DNA of 47,888 nt, from the IMG/VR virus record IMGVR_UViG_2718218397_000005, one strand, 5' to 3'. The number at the start of each line of letters is the position of its first letter. Positions within the stretch are counted from its first letter, which is position 1. This DNA is from a virus (lineage: Duplodnaviria; Heunggongvirae; Uroviricota; Caudoviricetes). Below the pieces are notes generated by a model. That model made no database searches. It saw only the letters and a program-made list of their open reading frames with translations, and was not told the origin of the DNA. This document shows positions 11,179 to 46,200 of this stretch, piece after piece. A program made the translations under genes and the position numbers.

Positions 11179-13736
11179 CGTCCACCTCCGGAGAACAGGC
11201 CACCATCACGCATCTGTGTCTGAATTTCATCACGGGCACCCTTGCGGGCCATGTCATACACCGCCTTCAGAGCAGCCGGACCTATCTGCCCGTTCGTGCC
11301 GTCGTTGTTAATCACCACATGGTTATTCTGCTCAAACGTCCCGGACGCCTGCGACCGGCTGTCTGCCATGCTGCCCGGTGTACCGACATAACCGCCGGTG
11401 GCATAGCCGCGCATCAGCCGGTAAAGATTCCCCACGCCAATCCGGCTGGTTGCCTCCTTCGTGAAGACAAACTCACCACGGTGAACAATCCCCGCTGGCT
11501 CATATTTGCCGCCGGTTCCCGTAAATCCTCCGGTTGCAAAATGGAATTTCGCCGCAGCGGCCTGAATGGCTGTACCGCCTGACGCGGATGCGCCGCCACC
11601 AACAGCCCCGCCAATGGCGCTGCCGATACTCCCGACAATCCCCACCATTGCCTGCTTAAGCAGAATTTCTGTCATCATGGACAGCACGGAACGGGTGAAG
11701 CTGCGCCAGTTCTGCTCACTGCCGGTCAGCATCGCCGCCATATTCTGTGCAATACCATCAAAGGTCTGCGTGGCTGCACTTTTTACCTGCGACATACTGT
11801 CCGTGGCGCTCTCTTCCCACTCACTCCAGCCGGACTTCAGGCCTGCCATCCAGTTCCCGCGAAGCTGGTCTTCAGCCGCCCAGGTCTTTTTCTGCTCTGA
11901 CATGACGTTATTCAGCGCCAGCGGATTATCGCCATACTGTTCCTTCAGGCGCTGTTCCGTGGCTTCCCGTTCTGCCTGCCGGTCAGTCAGCCCCCGGCTT
12001 TTCGCATCAATGGCGGCCCGTTTTGCCCGTTGCTGCTGTGCGAATTTATCCGCCTGCTGCGCCAGCGCGTTCAGGCGCTCCTGATACGTAACCTTGTCGC
12101 CAAGTGCAGCCAGCTGGCGTTTGTACTCCAGCGTCTCATCTTTATGCGCCAGCAGGGATTTCTCCTGTGCAGACAGCTGGCGACGTTGCGCCGCCTCCTC
12201 CAGTACCGCGAACTGACTCTCCGCCTTCCACAAATCCCGGCGCTGCTGGCTGATTTTCTCATTTGCTCCGGCATGCTTCTCCAGCGTCCGGAGTTCTGCC
12301 TGAAGCGTCAGCAGGGCAGCATGAGCACTGTCTTCCTGACGATCGCCCGCAGACACCTTCACGCCGGACTGTTTCGGCTTTTTCAGCGTCGCTTCATAAT
12401 CCTTTTTCGCCGCCGCCATCAGCGTGTTGTAATCCGCCTGCAGGATTTTCCCGTCTTTCAGTGCCTTGTTCAGTTCTTCCTGACGGGCGGTATATTTCTC
12501 CAGCGGCGTCTGCAGCCGTTCGTAAGCCTTCTGCGCCTCTTCGGTATATTTCAGCCGTGACGCTTCGGTATCGCTCTGCTGCTGCGCATTTTTGTCCTGT
12601 TGAGTCTGCTGCTCAGCCTTCTTTCGGGCGGCTTCAAGCGCAAGACGGGCCTTTTCACGATCATCCCAGTAACGCGCCCGCGCTTCATCGTTAACAAAAT
12701 AATCATCCTTGCGCAGATTCCAGATGTCGTCTGCTTTCTTAAACGCAGCCTCTGCCTTAATCAGCATCTCCTGCGCGGTATCAGGACGACCAATATCCAG
12801 CACCGCATCCCACATGGATTTGAATGCCCGCGCAGTCCTGTCTGCCCAGGTCTCCAGCGTGCCCATGTTCTCTTTCAGGCGGCGGGTCTGGTCATCAAAC
12901 CCTTTCGTTGCGGCCTCGTTCGCCGCCTGCAATGCCCCGGCTTCATCGCCGGAACGCTGCAACTGAGCAACATACGCAATCTGCTCCGTCGTCACGTTAT
13001 GGAACTGGCGTGCCATCGCCGTCAGCCCCGACGTCGGGTCTGTGGTCAGCTTCCCGAAGGCTTCAGCGACCTTGTCCACCTCCACGCCGGATGCAGAGGA
13101 GAAACGCGCCACACTCTGGCTGATGGACGCAATCTGAGCCTCACCGCTTACCCCCGCCTTAACCAGTGCGCTGAGTGACTCGCTGGTCTGGTTAAACGTC
13201 AGCCCTGCCGCCTGCCCGGCTCTGGACAGGACCAGCATACGATCTGCCGTCAGTCCCGCCTGATTGCCGGAAAGGACCAGCGTTTTGTTGAAATCGGACA
13301 GGGTTGAGTTGCCCTGATACCAGGCATACGCCAGCGCACCGGTCGCCACCGCCAGCGAGGTGGCCCCCACCATCGGCAGGGTGATCGCACCGGCAAGCCC
13401 CCTGAACATGGGGATCATCCCGCCGAAGGAGTCCTTCACCTGCCCCCCCTGTTGCAGCAGGATCAGCCACGGACTTTGCCCGCCTGCAAGCTGCGTGGCC
13501 ACGTCGGTGAACTGTGCAGGCAGCATACGCATGGCGGCTTTATACTGCCCGACGGAAATCCCCGCTTTCTGTGCAGCCAGCGCCTGTCGGCTCAGCGACT
13601 GTTCAACGACTGCCGCTGTTTTTTTCGCATCACTTTCCGTACCGGAAAAATGACGCCTGACTCTGGCCATCTGCTCGTCAAATCTGGCCGCATCCAGACT
13701 CAAATCAACGACCAGATCGCCTACCGGTTCAGCCAT
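11175..13736 (-). CDS. H: Tail tape measure protein H
   Basis: 853-aa ORF, coiled-coil-rich, Gly-rich C-terminal segment; lambda gpH-like (MAEPVGDLVVDLSLDAARFDEQ...). Confidence 0.9.
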   Translation of the reverse strand: MAEPVGDLVVDLSLDAARFDEQMARVRRHFSGTESDAKKTAAVVEQSLSRQALAAQKAGISVGQYKAAMRMLPAQFTDVATQLAGGQSPWLILLQQGGQVKDSFGGMIPMFRGLAGAITLPMVGATSLAVATGALAYAWYQGNSTLSDFNKTLVLSGNQAGLTADRMLVLSRAGQAAGLTFNQTSESLSALVKAGVSGEAQIASISQSVARFSSASGVEVDKVAEAFGKLTTDPTSGLTAMARQFHNVTTEQIAYVAQLQRSGDEAGALQAANEAATKGFDDQTRRLKENMGTLETWADRTARAFKSMWDAVLDIGRPDTAQEMLIKAEAAFKKADDIWNLRKDDYFVNDEARARYWDDREKARLALEAARKKAEQQTQQDKNAQQQSDTEASRLKYTEEAQKAYERLQTPLEKYTARQEELNKALKDGKILQADYNTLMAAAKKDYEATLKKPKQSGVKVSAGDRQEDSAHAALLTLQAELRTLEKHAGANEKISQQRRDLWKAESQFAVLEEAAQRRQLSAQEKSLLAHKDETLEYKRQLAALGDKVTYQERLNALAQQADKFAQQQRAKRAAIDAKSRGLTDRQAEREATEQRLKEQYGDNPLALNNVMSEQKKTWAAEDQLRGNWMAGLKSGWSEWEESATDSMSQVKSAATQTFDGIAQNMAAMLTGSEQNWRSFTRSVLSMMTEILLKQAMVGIVGSIGSAIGGAVGGGASASGGTAIQAAAAKFHFATGGFTGTGGKYEPAGIVHRGEFVFTKEATSRIGVGNLYRLMRGYATGGYVGTPGSMADSRSQASGTFEQNNHVVINNDGTNGQIGPAALKAVYDMARKGARDEIQTQMRDGGLFSGGGR

Positions 13737-14169
13737 ACCGGACTCCTCCTGCGATCCCTTCTGATACTGTCATCAGCATTACGTCATCCTCCGTCATGTC
13801 CGCCACATCCGGGGAAGCGGGGATAACTTCATTCCCGTCCGGGCCAAAGCGGACACCTCCGGCAAGCCCTGCCGCTTTCTGCATCAGCACATCATCTTCA
13901 GGCTCTTCGTCAGCCTCGCGCCGGTTCAGCAGACTGAAATCCAGCGGATGCATATCCGGATCGCTGAAAAACAGGCTGAGCACGGTGTACGTCAGCCCGG
14001 AAAAGTGCATATCCAGCAGAACATCATGAAAATAATGGGTACTGTAAAAGCGGTGCCAGTCGGCATACTCCGTGGATGACATCCCGGCAAGCATGGCACG
14101 CCAGTCGGGTCGCCCCATCTCACGCGCCAGTTTCAGGGCAAAACTCAGCTCACCGTCGAACACTTTCCC
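13729..14169 (-). CDS. T: T segment of the G-T tail assembly chaperone, expressed by -1 programmed frameshift from G
   Basis: ORF 13729-14163 in the -1 frame has no independent ATG (begins GTG) and overlaps the 3' end of G; lambda gpT-like sequence (FDGELSFALKLAREMGRPDWRAMLAGMSS...). Confidence 0.8.
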   Translation of the reverse strand, partial: GKVFDGELSFALKLAREMGRPDWRAMLAGMSSTEYADWHRFYSTHYFHDVLLDMHFSGLTYTVLSLFFSDPDMHPLDFSLLNRREADEEPEDDVLMQKAAGLAGGVRFGPDGNEVIPASPDVADMTEDDVMLMTVSEGIAGGVRYG

Positions 14170-14567
14170 GCAGAAACAGGCTCTGCGGGCCCGGCGTCCT
14201 CTGTCTGTTCAGGGGCATTATTCACCACAAACTCATACATACCAGACAGCCGGTACACCACGTTTTCAGCATGAGAAATTGCCTCCGTGGGCCAGGTGGT
14301 AAGCACTTCCTGCTCAATCTGTTTAACGGCTTCATTCATGGACGGCATCTGCGTCTTCTGCGGATGGTTATGCCACAGGGACATCGCCACCAGAAACGCG
14401 CCGGTTCTGATGGCGTCTTCCACAGTAAACTTCCGGTTGCTGTCTGACTCCGCCTGTTCTGCCTGCCGTTTCATCAGGGCGAGATGCTCAATGCGCTGCA
14501 GGGCTGACAGTTCAGAAAGCGTGACGGTCACACCGTTATGTTCAAATGATTCGGTTTTCAGGAACAT
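14145..14567 (-). CDS. G: Tail assembly chaperone G
   Basis: 140-aa ORF (MFLKTESFEHNGVTVTLSELSALQRIEHL...) ending ..AGKCSTVS; contains the slippery heptamer 6 codons before its stop. Confidence 0.9.
   Translation of the reverse strand: MFLKTESFEHNGVTVTLSELSALQRIEHLALMKRQAEQAESDSNRKFTVEDAIRTGAFLVAMSLWHNHPQKTQMPSMNEAVKQIEQEVLTTWPTEAISHAENVVYRLSGMYEFVVNNAPEQTEDAGPAEPVSAGKCSTVS
14163..14169 (-). promoter_or_regulatory. Programmed -1 ribosomal frameshift slippery site G GGA AAG (G to G-T)
   Basis: Minus-strand GGGAAAG (plus-strand CTTTCCC at 14163-14169) placed in the G frame as GCG GGA AAG, exactly where the T frame opens. Confidence 0.8.
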
Positions 14568-32959: not shown

Positions 32960-34486
32960 TCAAAAATAAACCTCACCATCAACCATATATTTGAGAGTAC
33001 TTATCGCCTGCTGGGCGGATATTGTTTTCATTAAAGGATAGTGTTTAAAAACAATGCCATTCATAAAATAGATATCACAGGTTTTATTATCTGTATTGAT
33101 TATGATTTTTTCGAATGTTTTATAGGCAAGTGTACGACATAGCTCTCGCCCATTTTTACTGGTTAAGTCAATAGCATGAAAATCACCAAGTGAACTCACC
33201 GCTTTACTCTTCAAAGTTTTTAATGATACAGAAGCCCTTCGTAATTCCTTATCTAATACTCTGATTTTTTCTGCTATAGCGGTAACTTCAGGCGCAACAG
33301 ATAATGCAGCAATTAAATTATTAATTTTCATCTGGAGCTCAATAATTTTCAACTCTAAAGTTTCATTAGCATCTTTCTTGTTTTCAACTGGTTGGATTTT
33401 ACTACAATTAAAAAGCAACTCATTAATGATATTATAATCAACCAAATCTCTCTTTATTGATGGCCTGTCACATCGATGCAGTCTTCTCATCGGACAAACA
33501 TAATAGCCATGCAAACTTCCAGATACCGCATGAACAATCATGGTATTACCACAAGCCTCGCACTTCATAACTGTTCGAAGTAGATTTATCAACATAGGAT
33601 TTTTGCTACTATTGCTAATACCAAAAGGTGCCAACCGAATTTCCTGTACAGCGTAAAACAAATCATCTGATATGACTCTGGGATAATAGCCAGCGATTTC
33701 ACTTATTCCTTTACCTCTTGCACGATATGAAGGTACGCATATACCTATCAGAGCTTTATTCGCTAATAATTTTTCAATTACAGAAGGTCCCCATGCACTT
33801 TCTTTTCCTGAGAAATTCTTTACAGCATGATCATTTAAATACTTGGCTATTGCATTCAATGAGCGCCTTTCCATCCTGAGTTTAAAAATTAGCTCAATAG
33901 TTTTCACCCTGTCGGGGTCTGGAACAAAAGCCGTTCTTTTGTCATCTAAGGAGAGCCATCTCGGACAAGACGCCGTCATAATCGTACCTGATTCCAGTGC
34001 ATCCTGCCGTTTTTTCTTCCATGATAATTTAACCCGACTTGACTTTATCTCGCTTTCTTCATTTGCCCTTTGTGCTATAAGTATGGCTTTTATTAATGAA
34101 TATGGCTCATTCAAAGAGTCAATATTATAGACTGTATTGTCGCAAAGAGTTATAACATCAATACCGTGATTCAAAATCAATTTCAGACGTTCAATCGCTT
34201 CACCGACTTTTTCTCTTGAAAGTCTGTCCAGACTTTCAACTAACAATGTAGTTCCTGGCAATATATAACCATGCTCTATAGCATCTAAAAATTCCGAAAA
34301 AGCTCCTGATTGTGCATGCTTTCCTTTGAATGCACTTAATCCTAAATCTTCATATGTTATGGTATCAAGATAATAATCACTATTTACCTTTAACCATTCA
34401 GCAATAAGTCTTCTCTGTCGGTTTAATGAGTCGCCAGACATCTGACCTGGTGATGAAAATCGCATATATGCTATGGCTTTTTTCAT
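32960..34486 (-). CDS. ybcK: Large serine recombinase (YbcK-like)
   Basis: 508-aa ORF; N-terminal resolvase catalytic domain (AIAYMRFSSPGQ..), recombinase domain, zinc-ribbon (CEACGNTMIVH...YYVCPMRRLHRCDRP), C-terminal coiled coil; AT-rich. Confidence 0.8.
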   Translation of the reverse strand: MKKAIAYMRFSSPGQMSGDSLNRQRRLIAEWLKVNSDYYLDTITYEDLGLSAFKGKHAQSGAFSEFLDAIEHGYILPGTTLLVESLDRLSREKVGEAIERLKLILNHGIDVITLCDNTVYNIDSLNEPYSLIKAILIAQRANEESEIKSSRVKLSWKKKRQDALESGTIMTASCPRWLSLDDKRTAFVPDPDRVKTIELIFKLRMERRSLNAIAKYLNDHAVKNFSGKESAWGPSVIEKLLANKALIGICVPSYRARGKGISEIAGYYPRVISDDLFYAVQEIRLAPFGISNSSKNPMLINLLRTVMKCEACGNTMIVHAVSGSLHGYYVCPMRRLHRCDRPSIKRDLVDYNIINELLFNCSKIQPVENKKDANETLELKIIELQMKINNLIAALSVAPEVTAIAEKIRVLDKELRRASVSLKTLKSKAVSSLGDFHAIDLTSKNGRELCRTLAYKTFEKIIINTDNKTCDIYFMNGIVFKHYPLMKTISAQQAISTLKYMVDGEVYF

Positions 34487-34680
34487 GGTGACACCTGCTA
34501 ACGTATGCTTTTATAAACCTTAGTGGTGGGATATAATTTTTGTTTAATTTTTATTTAAAAAGACAATTAAGGTCACATTATCTTGAATATACAACAATAA
34601 TCGTATTGCAATTTTCTTACGCCATAATCTTGAAAGCACAAAAGAATACATAAAAAAATAAAGACATTAACAAAAAGCAT

Positions 34681-34711
34681 AAAACGAGGCTCATATAAAT
34701 ATAAGAGCCTC
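34681..34711 (-). terminator. Rho-independent terminator downstream of emrE
   Basis: Stem GAGGCTC (34686-34692) / GAGCCTC (34705-34711), AT-rich loop, followed on the minus strand by GTTTT. Confidence 0.55.
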
Positions 34712-34742
34712 CATATTTTAGTCGTTTAGAAACAAATTATTT

Positions 34743-35075
34743 TTAATGTGGTGTGCTTCGTGACAATAAATTAATAACCAACACACCGGCACAAATCAAC
34801 ATCATGCCTATAATGGCTGGCAGGTCCAGCCGTTGGCCGAAAAGTCCCCATGACAGTAAGCTAATCAGGACAATACCGACTCCTGACCAGATAGCATAAG
34901 CAATCCCTGTAGGAATATAAGCCAGCGTCTGAGCTAATAACCAGAATGATGCACAATAACAAATAATTGTACCAACAGATGGCCATAACCGTGTAAAACC
35001 TTCTGAAAACTTCATTAAGGTTGTACCAATGACCTCTGCAAGTATTGCACCACCAAGATAAATATAAGGGTTCAT
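34743..35075 (-). CDS. emrE: Small multidrug resistance (SMR) efflux transporter EmrE
   Basis: ORF 34743-35129; probable start MNPYIYLGGAILAEVIGTTLMKFSEGFTRLWPS... (110 aa), four TM helices, conserved Glu14. Confidence 0.9.
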   Translation of the reverse strand: MNPYIYLGGAILAEVIGTTLMKFSEGFTRLWPSVGTIICYCASFWLLAQTLAYIPTGIAYAIWSGVGIVLISLLSWGLFGQRLDLPAIIGMMLICAGVLVINLLSRSTPH

Positions 35076-35142
35076 AGAATATTCTTTCCTGTTCAAACTG
35101 GAGAGAATTGTACTACAGTTTGAACTCAACTCACCTGTTTCA

Positions 35143-37155: not shown

Positions 37156-37701
37156 TCATATTGCCCCCAGCATGGTGGTGACCATCGCCATCAATGGACC
37201 AGCCAGATCCGGGTCCACTCGAAACATCGACACAATGCCTTCACTCATCTCCTTCAGTTTCTGGTGGCGTGGTGCGTTGAGAATGACCGCCTGCTTTGCC
37301 TCACAGAGTTCCTTTTCCATTTCAGCCAGCCGAGCCATGAAGCTATCCTGCTCAACCAGGTGGCCGCGATATTCCAGCGGTAGTACCGCCAGAATTGCCG
37401 GGGTCAGTTCACGCACGTTATTTCGGTATTTTTCAGAATCGAATTTGTTATCGAGGAAGCGGAACAGCTTCTGGCGTGCACGGCTGACATCATCAGGGAA
37501 ATCGATGGTGCCGCCGCCCTGCTCCCGATACTCATTCACAATGAGTGCGGCAACAACATCCTGATTATCTGCAGCCGACCAGGCGCGAACGGCATCACGG
37601 ATTTTTTCGTGGCCTGGCACCTGTTTTATTTGAGAACGATTTATCACCGCAGTCGGGCTAAATCCGCTAGTCTGTTGGTATGTAAGTGGTTGCATAATCA
37701 T
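37156..37701 (-). CDS. YdaT-like protein in the cII position
   Basis: 181-aa ORF; ..NEYREQGGGTIDFPDD.. and ..LTPAILAVLPLEYRGHL.. resemble remembered Rac YdaT segments; directly downstream of cro-like gene. Confidence 0.5.
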   Translation of the reverse strand: MIMQPLTYQQTSGFSPTAVINRSQIKQVPGHEKIRDAVRAWSAADNQDVVAALIVNEYREQGGGTIDFPDDVSRARQKLFRFLDNKFDSEKYRNNVRELTPAILAVLPLEYRGHLVEQDSFMARLAEMEKELCEAKQAVILNAPRHQKLKEMSEGIVSMFRVDPDLAGPLMAMVTTMLGAI

Positions 37702-38836: not shown

Positions 38837-39298
38837 ATGAGAATACTAGGTGTTAGGGCGGCGCCCAAAGTTACATCTTTTGTTGTATATTGCACTGATG
38901 AGTCTGCACTCAAATGTGTTGATGTTATTAAAATACCTTCGACCTTAGACACACCAGAAAAATTAAAGTATGTGCGAAATAACATCCTCGACATTCTTAA
39001 TTTATATAATGTTGAATTAGCTGCTATACGCGTTACTGAATCAAACTCTGATAATCTTAGCATTGACCGCCTTTATATAGAAGCTGTTATTCAAGAAGCA
39101 TTTTCAAGCAGTGATGTAAGAAGATATTACACCATTAGAAAATCTGGTATGAAGTCATCATTGAACCTAACAGAGATCGAGTATAAAGAAATATTGAAGT
39201 CACACCGTAATATAAATGGAATCGATAATTCTGGTTTTACAACTGAAACAAATGAAGCTGTTTTGGCTGCACTATCTGCGGAGGTAAGGGGATGCTGA
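38837..39298 (+). CDS. Hypothetical protein, first gene of a cI-linked cassette (rexA position)
   Basis: 153-aa ORF MRILGVRAAPKVTSFVVYCTDESALKCVDVIKIPSTLDT...; AT-rich; 7-nt overlap with the kinase gene. Confidence 0.55.
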   Translation: MRILGVRAAPKVTSFVVYCTDESALKCVDVIKIPSTLDTPEKLKYVRNNILDILNLYNVELAAIRVTESNSDNLSIDRLYIEAVIQEAFSSSDVRRYYTIRKSGMKSSLNLTEIEYKEILKSHRNINGIDNSGFTTETNEAVLAALSAEVRGC

Positions 39299-40338
39299 CT
39301 CCATACAAAAGAGCTGATGTAGCATTCGAATGGATTCGTGATCTAGAAGAACAGGGTTGTTTTTCAAAAGTATATCTGGCTCATGACAGACACCTAGCTC
39401 ATGACTTGGTGATTAAAGAAATAGAAAAAAAAGAAAACATTAACCACGACGACTACTTTAATGAAGCAAGGCTTCTCTATAAACATGCACATCCAAATAT
39501 TGTGCAAGTTCAGTATGCTGCTCAATGTGAGAGCAATATCTATATAGCCATGCCATTTTATCATAATGGTTCGCTAAACCAATTAATAAAAAAGATTAAT
39601 CTTACGAGCAGGGAGATAATACGGTATTCTATTCAATTTTTAAGTGGGCTTTATCATATACACTCAAAAGGTCTTATGCATTTTGATATAAAACCTAATA
39701 ACATCATGATATCAAACAGAAATGAGGCCATGCTATCTGACTTTGGATTGTCTCAGTTAGTCAATGAGGAATCGAGAGCTGCGCCTGAGTTTGGATATCA
39801 TTTTCATGTGCCACCGGAATATTTTTCTTTATCAACAAATGATTATAATTTCACATATGACATATATCAGGCAGGATTAACCATATATAGAATGTGTGTT
39901 GGATATGATAATTTTGAAAGAGAAAGATCTGCATTTAGAACGATTGAACAACTCAGAGAGTCGATAATTAATGGCTCCTATCCATTAAAAGAGTATCCTT
40001 CCCACATACATAAAAAATTGATAACAATAGTAAACAAATGCATTCATGTAGATCCAAATGAAAGATATCAATCCGTACTAGACGTACTAAACGATCTCTC
40101 AGCTATAAGTGATGGCGTTCTTGACTGGCGTCTACAGATGACAAAACCAACTAACGGCACATATGAATGGCAAAAAAAGTCTGGGGACGTTATACTGTCT
40201 ATAGTTTTTGACGCAGAAAATTCGTCTACTACTGGTTTTCGTTTATACGATGGTGGGCGGAAAAGGCGTGCTACGAACTTAACAATATCCTCAGGATGTA
40301 CCCCTACAAAACTGTATAGGTTATTAAAGGATAACTGA
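39292..40338 (+). CDS. stk: Eukaryotic-like (Hanks-type) protein kinase
   Basis: 348-aa ORF with beta3 Lys (LVIKEI), catalytic loop HFDIKPNN, DFG motif (LSDFGLS) and PPEYF activation-segment motif. Confidence 0.8.
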   Translation: MLTPYKRADVAFEWIRDLEEQGCFSKVYLAHDRHLAHDLVIKEIEKKENINHDDYFNEARLLYKHAHPNIVQVQYAAQCESNIYIAMPFYHNGSLNQLIKKINLTSREIIRYSIQFLSGLYHIHSKGLMHFDIKPNNIMISNRNEAMLSDFGLSQLVNEESRAAPEFGYHFHVPPEYFSLSTNDYNFTYDIYQAGLTIYRMCVGYDNFERERSAFRTIEQLRESIINGSYPLKEYPSHIHKKLITIVNKCIHVDPNERYQSVLDVLNDLSAISDGVLDWRLQMTKPTNGTYEWQKKSGDVILSIVFDAENSSTTGFRLYDGGRKRRATNLTISSGCTPTKLYRLLKDN

Positions 40339-42351: not shown

Positions 42352-43028
42352 CACCGGACATTATCCTGCAGCGTACCGGGATCGACGTGAGAGCTGTCGA
42401 GCAGGGGGATGATGCGTGGCACAAATTACGGCTCGGCGTCATCACAGCTTCAGAAGTTCACAACGTGATAGCAAAACCCCGCTCCGGAAAGAAATGGCCT
42501 GACATGAAAATGTCCTACTTCCACACCCTGCTGGCTGAGGTTTGCACCGGTGTGGCTCCGGAAGTTAATTCTAAGGCGCTGGCCTGGGGAAAACAGTACG
42601 AGAACGACGCCAGAACTCTGTTTGAATTCACTTCCGGCGTGAATGTTACTGAATCCCCGATCATCTATCGCGACGAAAGTATGCGCACCGCCTGCTCTCC
42701 CGATGGTTTATGCAGTGACGGCAATGGCCTTGAGCTGAAATGCCCGTTTACCTCCCGGGATTTCATGAAGTTCCGGCTCGGTGGTTTCGAGGCCATAAAA
42801 TCGGCTTACATGGCCCAGGTGCAGTACAGCATGTGGGTGACACGAAAAGATGCCTGGTACTTTGCCAACTATGACCCGCGCATGAAGCGTGAAGGCCTGC
42901 ATTATGTCGTGATTGAGCGGAATGAAAAGTATATGGCGAGTTTTGACGAGATGGTGCCGGAGTTCATCGAAAAAATGGACGAGGCACTGGCTGAAATTGG
43001 TTTTGTATTTGGGGAGCAATGGCGATGA
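42348..43028 (+). CDS. exo: Exo (lambda exonuclease, Red-alpha)
   Basis: 226-aa [43 protein letters not shown]..., lambda Exo-like. Confidence 0.9.
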
Positions 43029-43183
43029 CGCATCCTCACGATAATATCCGGGTAGGCGCGATCACTTTCGTCTACTCCGTTACAAAGCGAGGCTGGGTAT
43101 TTCCCGGGCTTTCTGTTATCCGAAATCCGCTGAAAGCCCAGCGGCTGGCTGAGGAGATAAATAATAAACGGGAGGCGGTATGA
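43025..43183 (+). CDS. Small hypothetical protein (lambda small-orf-like)
   Basis: Manually translated 52-aa [55 protein letters not shown]; ATG overlaps exo stop, stop overlaps next gene start. Confidence 0.4.
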
Positions 43184-44424
43184 ACGAGGCAGCAATAATT
43201 ATTGTCCCAACAGACATCAGCAAGAAAATTCGCGAAATAGAAGAGTCCTACAACAGATATATAAATGAATTTCGCATCCCTAATGATCATAAGATAATCG
43301 TGAATTATTCAGCAGGAAAAGACAGCACTGCCACACTCGCAGTGGCGCACACATTATTCGGCAAACAGGTACATGCTGTTATGGCAGACACGGATAATGA
43401 GCATAATCTAACTGTCGAATTCGCCAGGAGCATTCATGAGCAGATCGGTTGTAGCCCTGTGCAGGTTGTGAAGCGGATTTACACTGAAGAAGATTTTGCC
43501 AAACGACGAATTTATCTGCAAAAAAACTGGTCTAAACGACAGATGCTCCGCATGGGAGCATACCGTGGCATAGTCATGCCTTCCCTCGCACGTTCTGACA
43601 CCAAATTCGGGCAAGCCTGGAAGCGCACAGCAGAACGCTGGGGAATTGAGTTCGAAACTGCTCTTGATGCTGCGCTTTCCGTTATGCACCCATCCGGTAA
43701 TAGCTTTTTGGATTGCTCCCTTCTGCATGGCAAGTTCCCTATGCTGCGCGACCGATTCTGTACAGACGAACTGAAAATTCAGATAGCTTTCGACGCAGCC
43801 ATAAAGCCGCTCCTTGATGCTGGCGATGTTATCGTACAATGGTCTGGTGTTCGCGCGGATGAGTCCTCTAAGCACGCTGGATATGAGAGGTTTTCCCGCG
43901 ATATGCGCGACGCCGATTTTCTCTACAACTTCCTGCCGCTCCACAAATGGACGGCTGAGGACGTATTCGCAGTTCACAAATATTTCGGAATTAAGCCAAA
44001 TCCACTTTATATGCAAGGTGCGTCTCGTGTTGGCTGCATGAATTGCGTGCTATGCAACAAAGAGGAAATTGCAGAGACGGCTGCGCGCTGGCCAGAGCAC
44101 ATCAAAAAGCACAAACAATGGGAGTTGAAGGTACGCCTTGCTAGTAGATGGGTACACTGGATGAGCGTAGGAGAGATAAGCCAACGCTGGATGAAACAGT
44201 TCAATCTGCCACTTGGTCGAAATATTCAACTTTTTGGGCTAAAACCTGATGTGCAACACATCGACTGGTCAGGATTTTATGGTCCTCGTGGAGATCTTAA
44301 TTCTCCGGGTGTTTATGAAGTCGTAGAGTGGGCAAAAACAGGGCGCGGTGGCAAGGTCTACGATCTTGTAAAAGCAAGTCTCGATATAGAGGTTTGCTCT
44401 TCACGCTACGGTCTGTGCGAATAA
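43180..44424 (+). CDS. PAPS-reductase-like PP-loop ATP pyrophosphatase family protein
   Basis: 414-aa ORF with PP-loop motif (VNYSAGKDST) and later Cys residues (..RVGCMNCVLC..). Confidence 0.7.
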   Translation: MNEAAIIIVPTDISKKIREIEESYNRYINEFRIPNDHKIIVNYSAGKDSTATLAVAHTLFGKQVHAVMADTDNEHNLTVEFARSIHEQIGCSPVQVVKRIYTEEDFAKRRIYLQKNWSKRQMLRMGAYRGIVMPSLARSDTKFGQAWKRTAERWGIEFETALDAALSVMHPSGNSFLDCSLLHGKFPMLRDRFCTDELKIQIAFDAAIKPLLDAGDVIVQWSGVRADESSKHAGYERFSRDMRDADFLYNFLPLHKWTAEDVFAVHKYFGIKPNPLYMQGASRVGCMNCVLCNKEEIAETAARWPEHIKKHKQWELKVRLASRWVHWMSVGEISQRWMKQFNLPLGRNIQLFGLKPDVQHIDWSGFYGPRGDLNSPGVYEVVEWAKTGRGGKVYDLVKASLDIEVCSSRYGLCE

Positions 44425-44435
44425 TACTAAGTTAT

Positions 44436-45038
44436 TTACTCATTATTTTTTGATAATACAACTTTCTGCCAAGTTATCTGGTTACGTTGAAAACTATCTT
44501 TATTTATTGACGTAACTCGCAATGTTTTCAGACCTAACTGAGACGCTAACTCAAGAAGTTCCTCAGTATTAACAACGTTAATGTTTCTATCTGGTTCGGG
44601 AGGTCCTAAGCGCAATGTAATTATCATTCTCCCATTCAATGTTAAAAGATCAGTTAGCGTCTCTAGTGAGATTTTTTGCTCTTTTTTTGAAAGATGCATC
44701 CATACAGCACTGACTAAAATAAGGTCGAACTTTAGATTCATTGCTTTAACACTATGAAGAAAAGGCAATGAATCATCTAACCATATAATATGGTTAGATT
44801 TATAATATGAAGATGCCAAATTTCGCATCTTTTCACTTGGTTCAACAGCTATTACTTTATAACCTAATTCATCTAACGCAGCAGCATCACGGCCGGAACC
44901 TGAACCGACATCCAAAGAGACACCCTTAGATTGTAAAATAAACTCTTCAACATCCTGAAAGATAGAGTAAAAATCAAGTGATATATAATCGGCAAATAAG
45001 CGATCAGCATTATTGTCATAAAACTTCCACGAAGTCAC
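44436..45038 (-). CDS. Class I SAM-dependent methyltransferase (TehB-like architecture)
   Basis: 200-aa ORF with motif I (VSLDVGSGSGRDAAAL) and post-I acidic residue (VIAVEPS); no DPPY/NPPY motif, so probably not an N6/N4 DNA methyltransferase; AT-rich. Confidence 0.7.
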   Translation of the reverse strand: MTSWKFYDNNADRLFADYISLDFYSIFQDVEEFILQSKGVSLDVGSGSGRDAAALDELGYKVIAVEPSEKMRNLASSYYKSNHIIWLDDSLPFLHSVKAMNLKFDLILVSAVWMHLSKKEQKISLETLTDLLTLNGRMIITLRLGPPEPDRNINVVNTEELLELASQLGLKTLRVTSINKDSFQRNQITWQKVVLSKNNE

Positions 45039-45667
45039 TTTGATAATCCTGATTTTGCTTCGATAAATAATCCTGACTCAATATTTTTAATTGTTGCTTT
45101 GTATGTATTATGTGAAATGTCTTTTGAAAACAAGTTTGGATGATATACCCCAGCAATATTAACAAAGAAGCAAACAATAAGCATTACTGCCCAGCACGAC
45201 ACTACTATGTAACCAGTTTCCTTATTATCATAGCTAGAGGGCAATTTAAATCCAGCGTCTCTAGTAATTTCATTTAAAATATAGTTTTTTGAAGGATCTT
45301 CAATGTTTTTTTGTAGTGCTATTTTCGAACCAATTAAAGACCTTAAGCGATAAAGTGTAATCATTGTTGTGAAATCAAACAATGCTAACACTGCAAAGAT
45401 AATCCATAGGGAACTTTCATTTGCCAGTGTTGTTGCATACCACAACCCACCATTGACAGCAATTACGAAACTAGGGATTTGCCACATGAGCTGATTTAAA
45501 GCCCGCATGTGTTGTCCTGCTTCAAGATAAGTAATCTCCTGCAGCTTCTGATACCAACGGATTGCCTCAATTTTTAGATTTTCGTTAATCTGTTGCTGTT
45601 GCTGATTTACCATGTAATCCCTGCTCAACGAACTGAAACTTTTAATGATGCTATCACAACTTATCAA
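45035..45667 (-). CDS. Hypothetical membrane protein co-transcribed with the methyltransferase
   Basis: 210-aa ORF with poly-Gln N-terminus and about 3 hydrophobic segments (e.g. IPSFVIAVNGGLWYATTL, LWIIFAVLALFDFTTMITLY, YIVVSCWAVMLIVCFFVNIAGV); 4-nt overlap with methyltransferase. Confidence 0.55.
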   Translation of the reverse strand: MISCDSIIKSFSSLSRDYMVNQQQQQINENLKIEAIRWYQKLQEITYLEAGQHMRALNQLMWQIPSFVIAVNGGLWYATTLANESSLWIIFAVLALFDFTTMITLYRLRSLIGSKIALQKNIEDPSKNYILNEITRDAGFKLPSSYDNKETGYIVVSCWAVMLIVCFFVNIAGVYHPNLFSKDISHNTYKATIKNIESGLFIEAKSGLSK

Positions 45668-45981: not shown

Positions 45982-46200
45982 ATGGCAGACATCATTGATT
46001 CAGCATCAGAAATCGAAGAATTACAGCGCAATACAGCAATAAAAATGCGTCGTCTGAACCACCAGGCTATATCTGCCACTCATTGTTGTGAGTGTGGCGA
46101 TCCGATAGATGAACGAAGACGCCTGGCCGTTCAGGGTTGTCGGACTTGTGCAAGTTGCCAGGAGGAGATCGAACTTAAGAACAAACAATGGGGACTGTGA
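45982..46200 (+). CDS. TraR/DksA-family C4 zinc-finger protein
   Basis: 72-aa ORF MADIIDSASEIEELQRNTAIKMRRLNHQ... with CxxC-x17-CxxC (CCECGDPID...CRTCASC). Confidence 0.8.
   Translation: MADIIDSASEIEELQRNTAIKMRRLNHQAISATHCCECGDPIDERRRLAVQGCRTCASCQEEIELKNKQWGL

Follow-up and report, generated by a model that had tools for sequence, protein, structure and literature searches.

The question raised by this locus is what a gene of the phosphoadenosine phosphosulfate (PAPS) reductase family does at the far end of a lambda-type recombination operon. The gene lies at 43180-44424 in IMGVR_UViG_2718218397_000005, a 47,888-nucleotide stretch of Caudoviricetes DNA from IMG/VR; that whole stretch is called the window here. 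A reading of the letters alone, referred to below as the original prediction, described a 414-amino-acid (aa) open reading frame (ORF) with the motif NYSAGKDST, and took it for a lone PP-loop protein that might act in DNA modification, anti-restriction or recombination. The ORF is exactly as described, with an ATG start and the motif at residues 42-50. The explanation that we consider best, and hold with moderate confidence, is that its product is an early-expressed, DndC/SspD-like enzyme of DNA sulfur modification or anti-defence.

The family of the protein was established with profile searches. Pfam PF01507 (PAPS_reduct) matches residues 39-290 with 71.9 bits against a gathering cut-off of 22.5, and PHROG 424, named "phosphoadenosine phosphosulfate reductase", matches residues 5-413 (E 1.3e-64, 219.9 bits). 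HMMER matched 1,357 representative clusters at E ≤ 0.001, 658 at E ≤ 1e-10 and 147 at E ≤ 1e-30, and at least 569 relatives are found in IMG/VR. Most relatives are about 320 aa long (the short form). The window protein belongs to a long form: there is an insert around residues 120-155, and the segment around 325-360 is variable. Conservation was read from alignments of 134-142 diverse family members, and the loci of relatives were sought with a profile built from a 25-sequence alignment. The gene and its conserved motifs are as follows.

43180-44424, plus strand: predicted DndC/SspD-like PP-loop ATP pyrophosphatase of the PAPS-reductase superfamily, long form, 414 aa.
43309-43326, plus strand: PP-loop S44-A-G-K-D-S49, family consensus SGGKDS; S44, G46, K47, D48 and S49 are each at least 90% conserved in 142 sequences.
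43759-43776, plus strand: C194-T-D-E-L-K199 (FCTxELK); C194 and K199 are invariant.
44035-44046, plus strand: C286-M-N-C289 (RVGCxxC), a putative iron-sulfur (Fe-S) site; C286 is invariant and C289 at least 90% conserved.
44395-44418, plus strand: C-terminal tail C406-S-S-R-Y-G-L-C413 (CSSxYGLCE), with two conserved cysteines.

The alanine at position 45 of the PP-loop is a variant common to close enterobacterial relatives. The FCTxELK motif has counterparts in lambda NinC (FCTDRLK) and in DndC and SspD (WCTxxLK). In a profile search of the PDB, the CxxC of the family aligns to GCEPC of the Pseudomonas aeruginosa adenosine phosphosulfate (APS) reductase 2goy, in which these cysteines are the Fe-S ligands. 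The tail is kept even in short-form relatives at about 32-38% identity: C406 is conserved in 96% and C413 in 97% of 134 sequences, and G411 and C413 reach at least 90% in the 142-sequence alignment. Further invariant or nearly invariant positions are D70, T71, E74, G223, R225, E228, S229 and R232, followed by N274-P-L-Y277, R283-V-G-C286, K294, W314-E315 and W384. The conserved cysteines C194, C286, C289, C406 and C413 are compatible with a DndC-type [4Fe-4S] cluster held on three cysteines, and the alignment suggests that the protein very likely carries an Fe-S site.

Profile-profile comparison with hhalign ranked SspD first (probability 99.7%, E 2e-25), ahead of lambda NinC (99.1%, 7e-19) and DndC (98.2%, 3e-14). 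At the domain level, PADLOC matched SspD (E 3.8e-18, over residues 183-328 only), BrxP (5e-15) and DndC (5e-8). No curated NCBIfam model passed, and those for CysH, APS reductase, DndC, QueC and LarE all scored far under their cut-offs. A PDB search with the single sequence gave marginal matches only; the profile and fold searches found the generic PP-loop fold, with no solved DndC or SspD among the matches. The high-confidence structure model is similar to APS/PAPS reductases and to tRNA thiolases of the [4Fe-4S] type. The original prediction had proposed profile and structure searches as a check, and they place the protein in the PAPS-reductase superfamily, nearest to SspD, NinC and DndC. 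As judged from its sequence, the protein is a PP-loop enzyme that uses ATP and belongs to the DndC/SspD/NinC branch; it is not a CysH. The original prediction had also named DndC and QueC as analogues. The DndC profile is homologous. The QueC analogy is weak, and QueC-like 7-deazaguanine synthesis was rejected on PF06508 (18.2 against 22 bits) and TIGR00364 (17.8 against 150.3), where only the PP-loop region matches.

The gene is not the lone copy that it was taken for, and forms the first part of a recurrent three-gene cassette at 43180-45613. The other two genes run towards it on the opposite strand.

44436-45038, minus strand: class I S-adenosylmethionine (SAM)-dependent methyltransferase, 200 aa, matching Methyltransf_11/25/23/12, with a domain-level match to mad2 in PADLOC.
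45035-45613, minus strand: membrane protein of about 192 aa, with hydrophobic helices by hydropathy; the longest ORF starts from TTG 45667.

The methyltransferase is convergent with the PAPS-like gene, with 11 nucleotides between the two stop codons, and its start is overlapped by the stop of the membrane-protein gene by 4 nucleotides; the pair makes a two-gene operon. Among solved structures, the methyltransferase is nearest to enzymes that methylate small molecules or peptides. The membrane protein has a conserved N-terminal helix, EAGQHMRALNQLMWQxPS, and its AlphaFold2 model is all-helical with a predicted local distance difference test (pLDDT) score of 73.8. It has no match in Pfam (even at E 10), PHROG, NCBIfam or PADLOC, and the model has no meaningful fold match. 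An identity as a SLATT/DUF4231 protein, taken from a UniRef name, was dropped, as Pfam, PADLOC and the fold searches do not support it. The two-gene operon lies in a stretch of low guanine-cytosine (GC) content, 0.37-0.40.

The three genes stay together across considerable divergence. The trio recurs in Escherichia coli prophages with differing immunity regions and integrases, in a nin region of Klebsiella, and in Enterobacter and other loci. A profile of the methyltransferase found 24 viral loci, and in 20 of them an intact convergent PAPS-like gene adjoins; two more hold remnants and two hold none. Among phage-type metagenome loci found with a profile of the membrane protein, all eight have the trio. 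It is kept at 42-44% identity in the methyltransferase, 39-41% in the membrane protein and, for short-form PAPS partners, about 32% (tblastn) to 38% (local alignment). Between two loci (L158 and L141) the companion pairs are 82% and 73% identical, and the PAPS partners only 39%. The PAPS partner has thus been exchanged with adjacency and orientation kept, an observation that favours functional coupling over hitch-hiking.

The strongest indirect evidence for the chemistry of the phage enzyme comes from bacterial chromosomes. Only 148 of 5.8 billion proteins belong to the membrane-protein family, whose distant chromosomal homologues are always followed by the methyltransferase. At 11 of the 16 chromosomal loci with enough flank, dnd or ssp genes lie within 8 kb of the pair (the pair loci on record are L146-L150, L163, L173, L176, L178, L180 and L182-L184). 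In Chromobacterium and Microvirgula the pair is divergent from dndB-dndC-dndD-dndE, where dndC is a true one (TIGR03183, 634 bits), and in Chitinimonas and Methylotenera it is divergent from DUF4007 (SspB)-SspC-SspD. A Burkholderia pair adjoins an HNH gene, the TIGR04096 "dnd-associated methyltransferase" and DndE; a Luteimonas pair lies near DndB, and five further metagenome loci lie near Dnd genes. The chromosomal exceptions are three similar loci beside HipBA, Mrr and a helicase, plus L185 and L186. A PAPS-family enzyme is thus common to the Dnd, Ssp and phage settings of the pair, which is what points to DndC/SspD-type chemistry. No description of the pair was found in the literature searched, and the membrane protein is not covered by any PADLOC model. 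For scale, PMC12914056 puts dnd or ssp genes in about 6% of gut genomes.

One of the exceptions deserves a separate word. At L185 (8001-16579) the pair is followed by three genes, whose products measure 616, 515 and 1768 aa; the largest of these contains an FtsK/SpoIIIE ATPase domain. By size the three were guessed to be DndFGH; NCBIfam did not recognise them, and L185 was therefore left out of the phosphorothioate-linked count.

The positions of close relatives bear on the three roles that the original prediction had offered. Relatives at 68-83% identity occupy the exo-xis position, the nin region just after P, P2-like operons and a P22-like early-left operon. The lambdoid position just after P, where Klebsiella relatives are found, is the position of ninC in lambda, and at 14 of 50 long-form loci the gene lies in a P2-like early operon directly 5' of replication gene A. 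All observed positions of relatives are early lytic operons of temperate phages. Since such similar relatives sit in operons away from exo, a link to recombination is unsupported and the adjacency to exo is incidental. DNA modification and anti-restriction, the other two roles, gained support from the methyltransferase fusions and neighbours described next and from the nearest profiles, SspD, BrxP and DndC.

Two relatives are fused to methyltransferases: P0107 joins MT-A70 to the PAPS domain and adjoins Nmad5 and DUF4406 genes, and P0125 has an N-terminal N6-adenine methyltransferase of the NPPF type. At 8 of 50 long-form loci a Dam gene of the D12 class is at most two genes away, usually directly 5' and overlapping, and at 9 of 46 short-form loci a gene for a C5-cytosine DNA methyltransferase is equally near. 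There is no universal neighbour of the PAPS-like gene, the neighbours varying among GPA, Dam, the C5 methyltransferase, exo and DksA/TraR. Sulfur-assimilation genes were never among the neighbours of the loci examined; DNA methyltransferases and replication genes were found instead. This neighbourhood is that expected for a DNA-modifying or anti-restriction gene. In the window itself, tblastn detected no Dam, no C5 or other DNA methyltransferase and no ninC. The N-terminal domain of P0125 was also considered as a member of the 200-aa methyltransferase family and rejected, as the alignment is limited to the SAM loop and the NPPF motif of DNA methyltransferases is found in P0125.

Several further observations concern these neighbourhoods. 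In an Aeromonas prophage (L004, 6357-10094), genes for DUF4406, Nmad5 and a 232-aa protein of no known family are followed, all in one direction, by the fusion of MT-A70 and PAPS domains, and this early block may be a larger DNA-modification operon. Directly 3' of short-form PAPS-like genes in L115 (7067-8260) and two similar loci lies a 397-aa protein of SAD/SRA type, a weak match below the cut-off; such short-form genes often also adjoin C5 DNA methyltransferases. SAD/SRA is a reader domain for modified cytosine. A gene for a 72-aa zinc-finger protein of the DksA/TraR type lies just past the cassette in the window (45982-46200, plus strand), and a DksA/TraR homologue lies within two genes of the PAPS-like gene at 11 of 50 long-form loci (including L007, L008, L012 and L014), directly 5' of it in P2-like prophages.

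How the gene would be expressed can be read from its position. The original prediction had placed it after exo and a coupled ORF of 52 codons in a non-essential region. This is correct: the intervening ORF overlaps both the exo stop and the PAPS-like start, and the locus lies in the exo-xis region.

43019-43183, plus strand: small ORF, homologue of lambda orf60a (DUF1317 at E 8e-34 in Pfam; PHROG 1998).

This ORF has 54 codons from ATG 43019 and 52 from ATG 43025, the latter being the RefSeq call in E. coli SE11; lambda orf60a is itself annotated as DUF1317. Its TGA and the ATG of the PAPS-like gene overlap as ATGA, consistent with translational coupling, and a GGGAGG Shine-Dalgarno sequence was read 5 nucleotides 5' of the start. 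By Pfam, gam, bet (RecT family) and exo (YqaJ family) lie 5' of the small ORF in the same order as in lambda. The region is about 99.5% identical to Escherichia phage phi458, an isolated phage with a complete genome and E. coli MC1061 as its recorded host; there the PAPS-like gene is Orf4, a "putative transcriptional regulator". The exo/orf60a junction is common to 180 lambdoid phage records, of which only one has the PAPS-like gene. Among 5,426 complete E. coli genomes 28 have it, in every case 3' of DUF1317 and with an identity of at least 99%. With such low counts, the gene is rare cargo of the exo-xis accessory region.

From these results a mechanism can be proposed for the DndC/SspD-like enzyme. 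It would be transcribed from pL with the delayed-early leftward operon gam-bet-exo-orf60a, and so would be made early in lytic growth and be silent in the lysogen, as the gene order and the overlapping stop and start codons suggest. The enzyme would bind ATP on its SGGKDS-type loop and use C194, C286, C289 and one C-terminal cysteine to hold an Fe-S cluster. Sulfur mobilised by a host cysteine desulfurase (IscS) would then be put on replicating phage DNA, as a phosphorothioate or a closely related modification. Alternatively, the protein might plug into a host Dnd or Ssp machine as an extra catalytic subunit. By either route, the phage DNA would evade defences that depend on modification, those based on phosphorothioate included. 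Given that the companion pair accompanies dndBCDE and sspBCD clusters in bacteria, its task is probably to read, process or guard this modification. What the sequences show is the family, the conserved catalytic residues, the persistence of the cassette and its genomic associations; the cluster, the action on DNA, the sulfur chemistry, the gain against defences and the timing are predictions.

A number of points weigh against this explanation. The pair is found at 8 of the 50 long-form PAPS loci, and 42 are without it; being convergent, it is probably also expressed at a different time from the PAPS-like gene. Most E. coli lack Dnd and Ssp. The DndC equivalog model TIGR03183 gives 29.6 bits against a cut-off of 290.4, compared with 633.6 for the true Chromobacterium DndC. 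In the whole window, tblastn at E ≤ 0.01 found no match to DndB, DndD or DndE, and tblastn likewise found no SspB (DUF4007) or SspC; the partner SspA is missing as well. A cysteine dyad described as unique to DndC (PMC10853773) was not identified in the PAPS-like protein. The main difficulty is that phosphorothioate synthesis is reported to need a P-loop NTPase (DndD, SspC or BrxC) besides the PAPS-domain protein (PMC12914056), and the window encodes no DndD- or SspC-type one. The Fe-S cluster is a prediction from the alignment.

A further point of this kind concerns the allele in the window.

43873-43875, plus strand: codon 232, CAC (His) in the window; Arg (CGC) in phi458, SE11, HS30-1 and the 99%-identical representative P0001.

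The column of residue 232 is at least 90% arginine across the family and aligns to the second arginine of the R-x-x-Q-S-x-S-R motif of CysH. The change R232H is private to the window, and to judge from the conservation of this position the window allele may be impaired, a hypomorph.

A more specific form of the same idea takes the trio as a whole to be an undescribed phosphorothioate-linked module. The pair would be a new Dnd/Ssp accessory (a sensor, effector or processing unit), and temperate phages would carry a minimal version in which the solo DndC/SspD-like enzyme supplies the modification without a dedicated P-loop NTPase. This proposal is tentative, and we regard it as possible rather than probable.

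Three readings of another kind and one regulatory reading were weighed against DNA sulfur modification by a DndC/SspD-like enzyme. The one that survives best keeps the fold and changes the chemistry. Here the enzyme would adenylate and then thiolate or substitute a nucleobase of DNA or tRNA, in the manner of the [4Fe-4S] PP-loop thiolases TtuA, TtcA and NcsA; no backbone phosphorothioate would be made, and the SAM methyltransferase might methylate the product. We think this unlikely, as the profiles lie nearer to SspD and DndC than to any tRNA thiolase model, and it is specifically with Dnd and Ssp clusters that the companion pair is associated in position.

Somewhat more doubtful is a defence or addiction module of the prophage, in which the pair would be the effector or sensor in the lysogen and the PAPS-like enzyme would give a protective mark, or neutralise the pair, when the phage makes its own lytic switch. 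The strictly convergent orientation implies separate promoters and possibly antisense silencing of the pair by read-through from pL, which is compatible with mutually exclusive expression. The pair also occurs in defence islands beside Dnd/Ssp, HNH, PIN, AbiE, HipA and Mrr genes, its low GC content is typical of morons, and its PAPS partner has been swapped with adjacency kept. On the other side, PADLOC has no model for the trio either, no effector fold is recognisable in the membrane protein, and a scan for promoters and terminators around the companion operon gave no more sites than shuffled sequences did. The many long-form genes without the pair also speak against such a module.

That the protein is a regulator, an IbrA-like co-activator of prophage gene expression as the phi458 label for Orf4 might suggest, seems very improbable. 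E. coli IbrA is a PAPS-reductase-domain protein; IbrA-like proteins are defined by a C-terminal DUF3440 domain and an adjacent ParB-like IbrB. The window protein has no DUF3440 match at E ≤ 0.01 and no ParB-like IbrB nearby, its neighbours being the DUF1317 ORF and the SAM methyltransferase, and catalytic-type residues conserved across 142 diverse sequences argue for an enzyme.

Least probable of all is the reading of phage PAPS reductases used in PMC13369170, an auxiliary viral CysH by which assimilatory sulfate reduction of the host would be raised: the Pfam and PHROG names, the top structural matches and a C-terminal half resembling CysH/APS reductase (NF002537 at E 6e-12, TIGR02055 at E 3e-11) favour it, but every CysH and APS-reductase cut-off was failed (NF002537 45.8 of 154 bits, TIGR00434 31.6 of 165.1, TIGR02055 43.5 of 235.3, TIGR02057 20.4 of 254.2) and the loop, tail and neighbours are not those of CysH.

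The rest of the window holds other cargo, recorded here for its own sake. At 37156-37701 (minus strand), between the cro-like region and the gene O homologue and about where lambda has cII, lies a gene for a 181-aa YdaT toxin-domain protein (E 3e-29), with a homologue at the same place in E. coli SE11. Directly 3' of the cI-like repressor gene, at 38837-40338 (plus strand), are a 153-aa ORF without family matches and a gene for a 348-aa eukaryote-type Ser/Thr kinase (Pkinase E 3e-46), which PADLOC matches to mad6 (8e-49) and PD-T4-6 (5e-36) and which is likely a prophage-encoded exclusion kinase. The nin region at 32960-35129 (minus strand), with a low GC content of 0.35-0.37, encodes a large serine recombinase (508 aa; Resolvase, Recombinase and Zn ribbon domains) and a small multidrug resistance (SMR) efflux protein (128 aa; PF00893, E 5e-35), unusual cargo between the replication genes and Q.

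The family name (PHROG 424, "PAPS reductase family protein") and a suspected anti-defence role were already known. What appears to be new, against the literature searched, is the conserved trio, the link of the pair to both Dnd and Ssp clusters, and the kinship with NinC. Genes named phage PAPS reductase are abundant, and virome studies routinely count them as auxiliary genes of sulfur metabolism, the solo form being widely misread as cysH; if the DndC/SspD-type reading of the clade is true, it changes how virome surveys of sulfur genes are interpreted. A pair linked to Dnd and Ssp in the inducible coliphage phi458 offers a tractable handle on how phages meet phosphorothioate-based immunity, and lets a second question be addressed: whether DNA can be modified by a PAPS-domain enzyme on its own, with neither DndD nor SspC. 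The kinship also suggests a class of function for NinC, which is among the remaining unexplained genes of lambda.

Five known systems can be set beside the window protein. SspD, the ATP pyrophosphatase of single-strand phosphorothioation by SspABCD, shares the SGGKDS, DTGxE, WCTxxLK, GxRxxE and RxGCxxC motifs, and a transmembrane protein and SAM methyltransferase pair lies nearby in both settings. At about 23% identity, despite the high profile probability, it is a homologue and not an orthologue; the phage protein exceeds SspD in length, contains an insert, ends in a CSSxYGLCE tail of its own and stands solo in a phage early operon. DndC, the sulfurtransferase of DndABCDE, shares the PP-loop and the Fe-S-type cysteine motifs, and the companion pair adjoins true dndBCDE clusters.

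Lambda NinC (290 aa, nin region) shares SGGxxS, DTGxEH, FCTDxLK and GIRADE, and is likewise a non-essential early lambdoid gene. It differs in a divergent second half of the domain and in having no C-terminal cysteine tail, with about 23% identity over 207 aligned columns; the window protein fails full-length membership of the NinC family and is a distant homologue. In lambda (NC_001416, L129) ninC lies at 13582-14454, and in Klebsiella a gene of the window type occupies this position. RefSeq annotates NinC as a PAPS reductase, and no function for it was found in the literature searched.

CysH and APS reductase are further away, at 12-20% identity, and the genomic context of the phage gene has no relation to sulfur assimilation. 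CysH no longer has the PP-loop and takes PAPS, already activated, as its substrate, whereas the PAPS-like family keeps the loop intact: in the PDB profile alignment, Vibrio vulnificus CysH has a degenerate SSSFGIQA where the family has SGGKDS. CysH ends in a catalytic redox tail, ECGLH, and the phage protein ends in CSSRYGLCE, which is not of that type.

An experimental precedent is p0018, the PAPS-Dam fusion of a Vibrio podophage (Piel et al.), in which a phage PAPS-reductase domain is joined to a DNA adenine methyltransferase, as in relatives of the window protein. That fusion needs no separate methyltransferase and acts together with a second gene, whereas the gene of the window is unfused; the likeness is one of description. 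Experimentally, the fusion and its adjoining gene let the Vibrio phage escape Dnd (bioRxiv 10.1101/2021.05.05.442762), and an anti-defence role has also been proposed for phage PAPS reductases encoded in Aca-regulated operons (PMC13551039).

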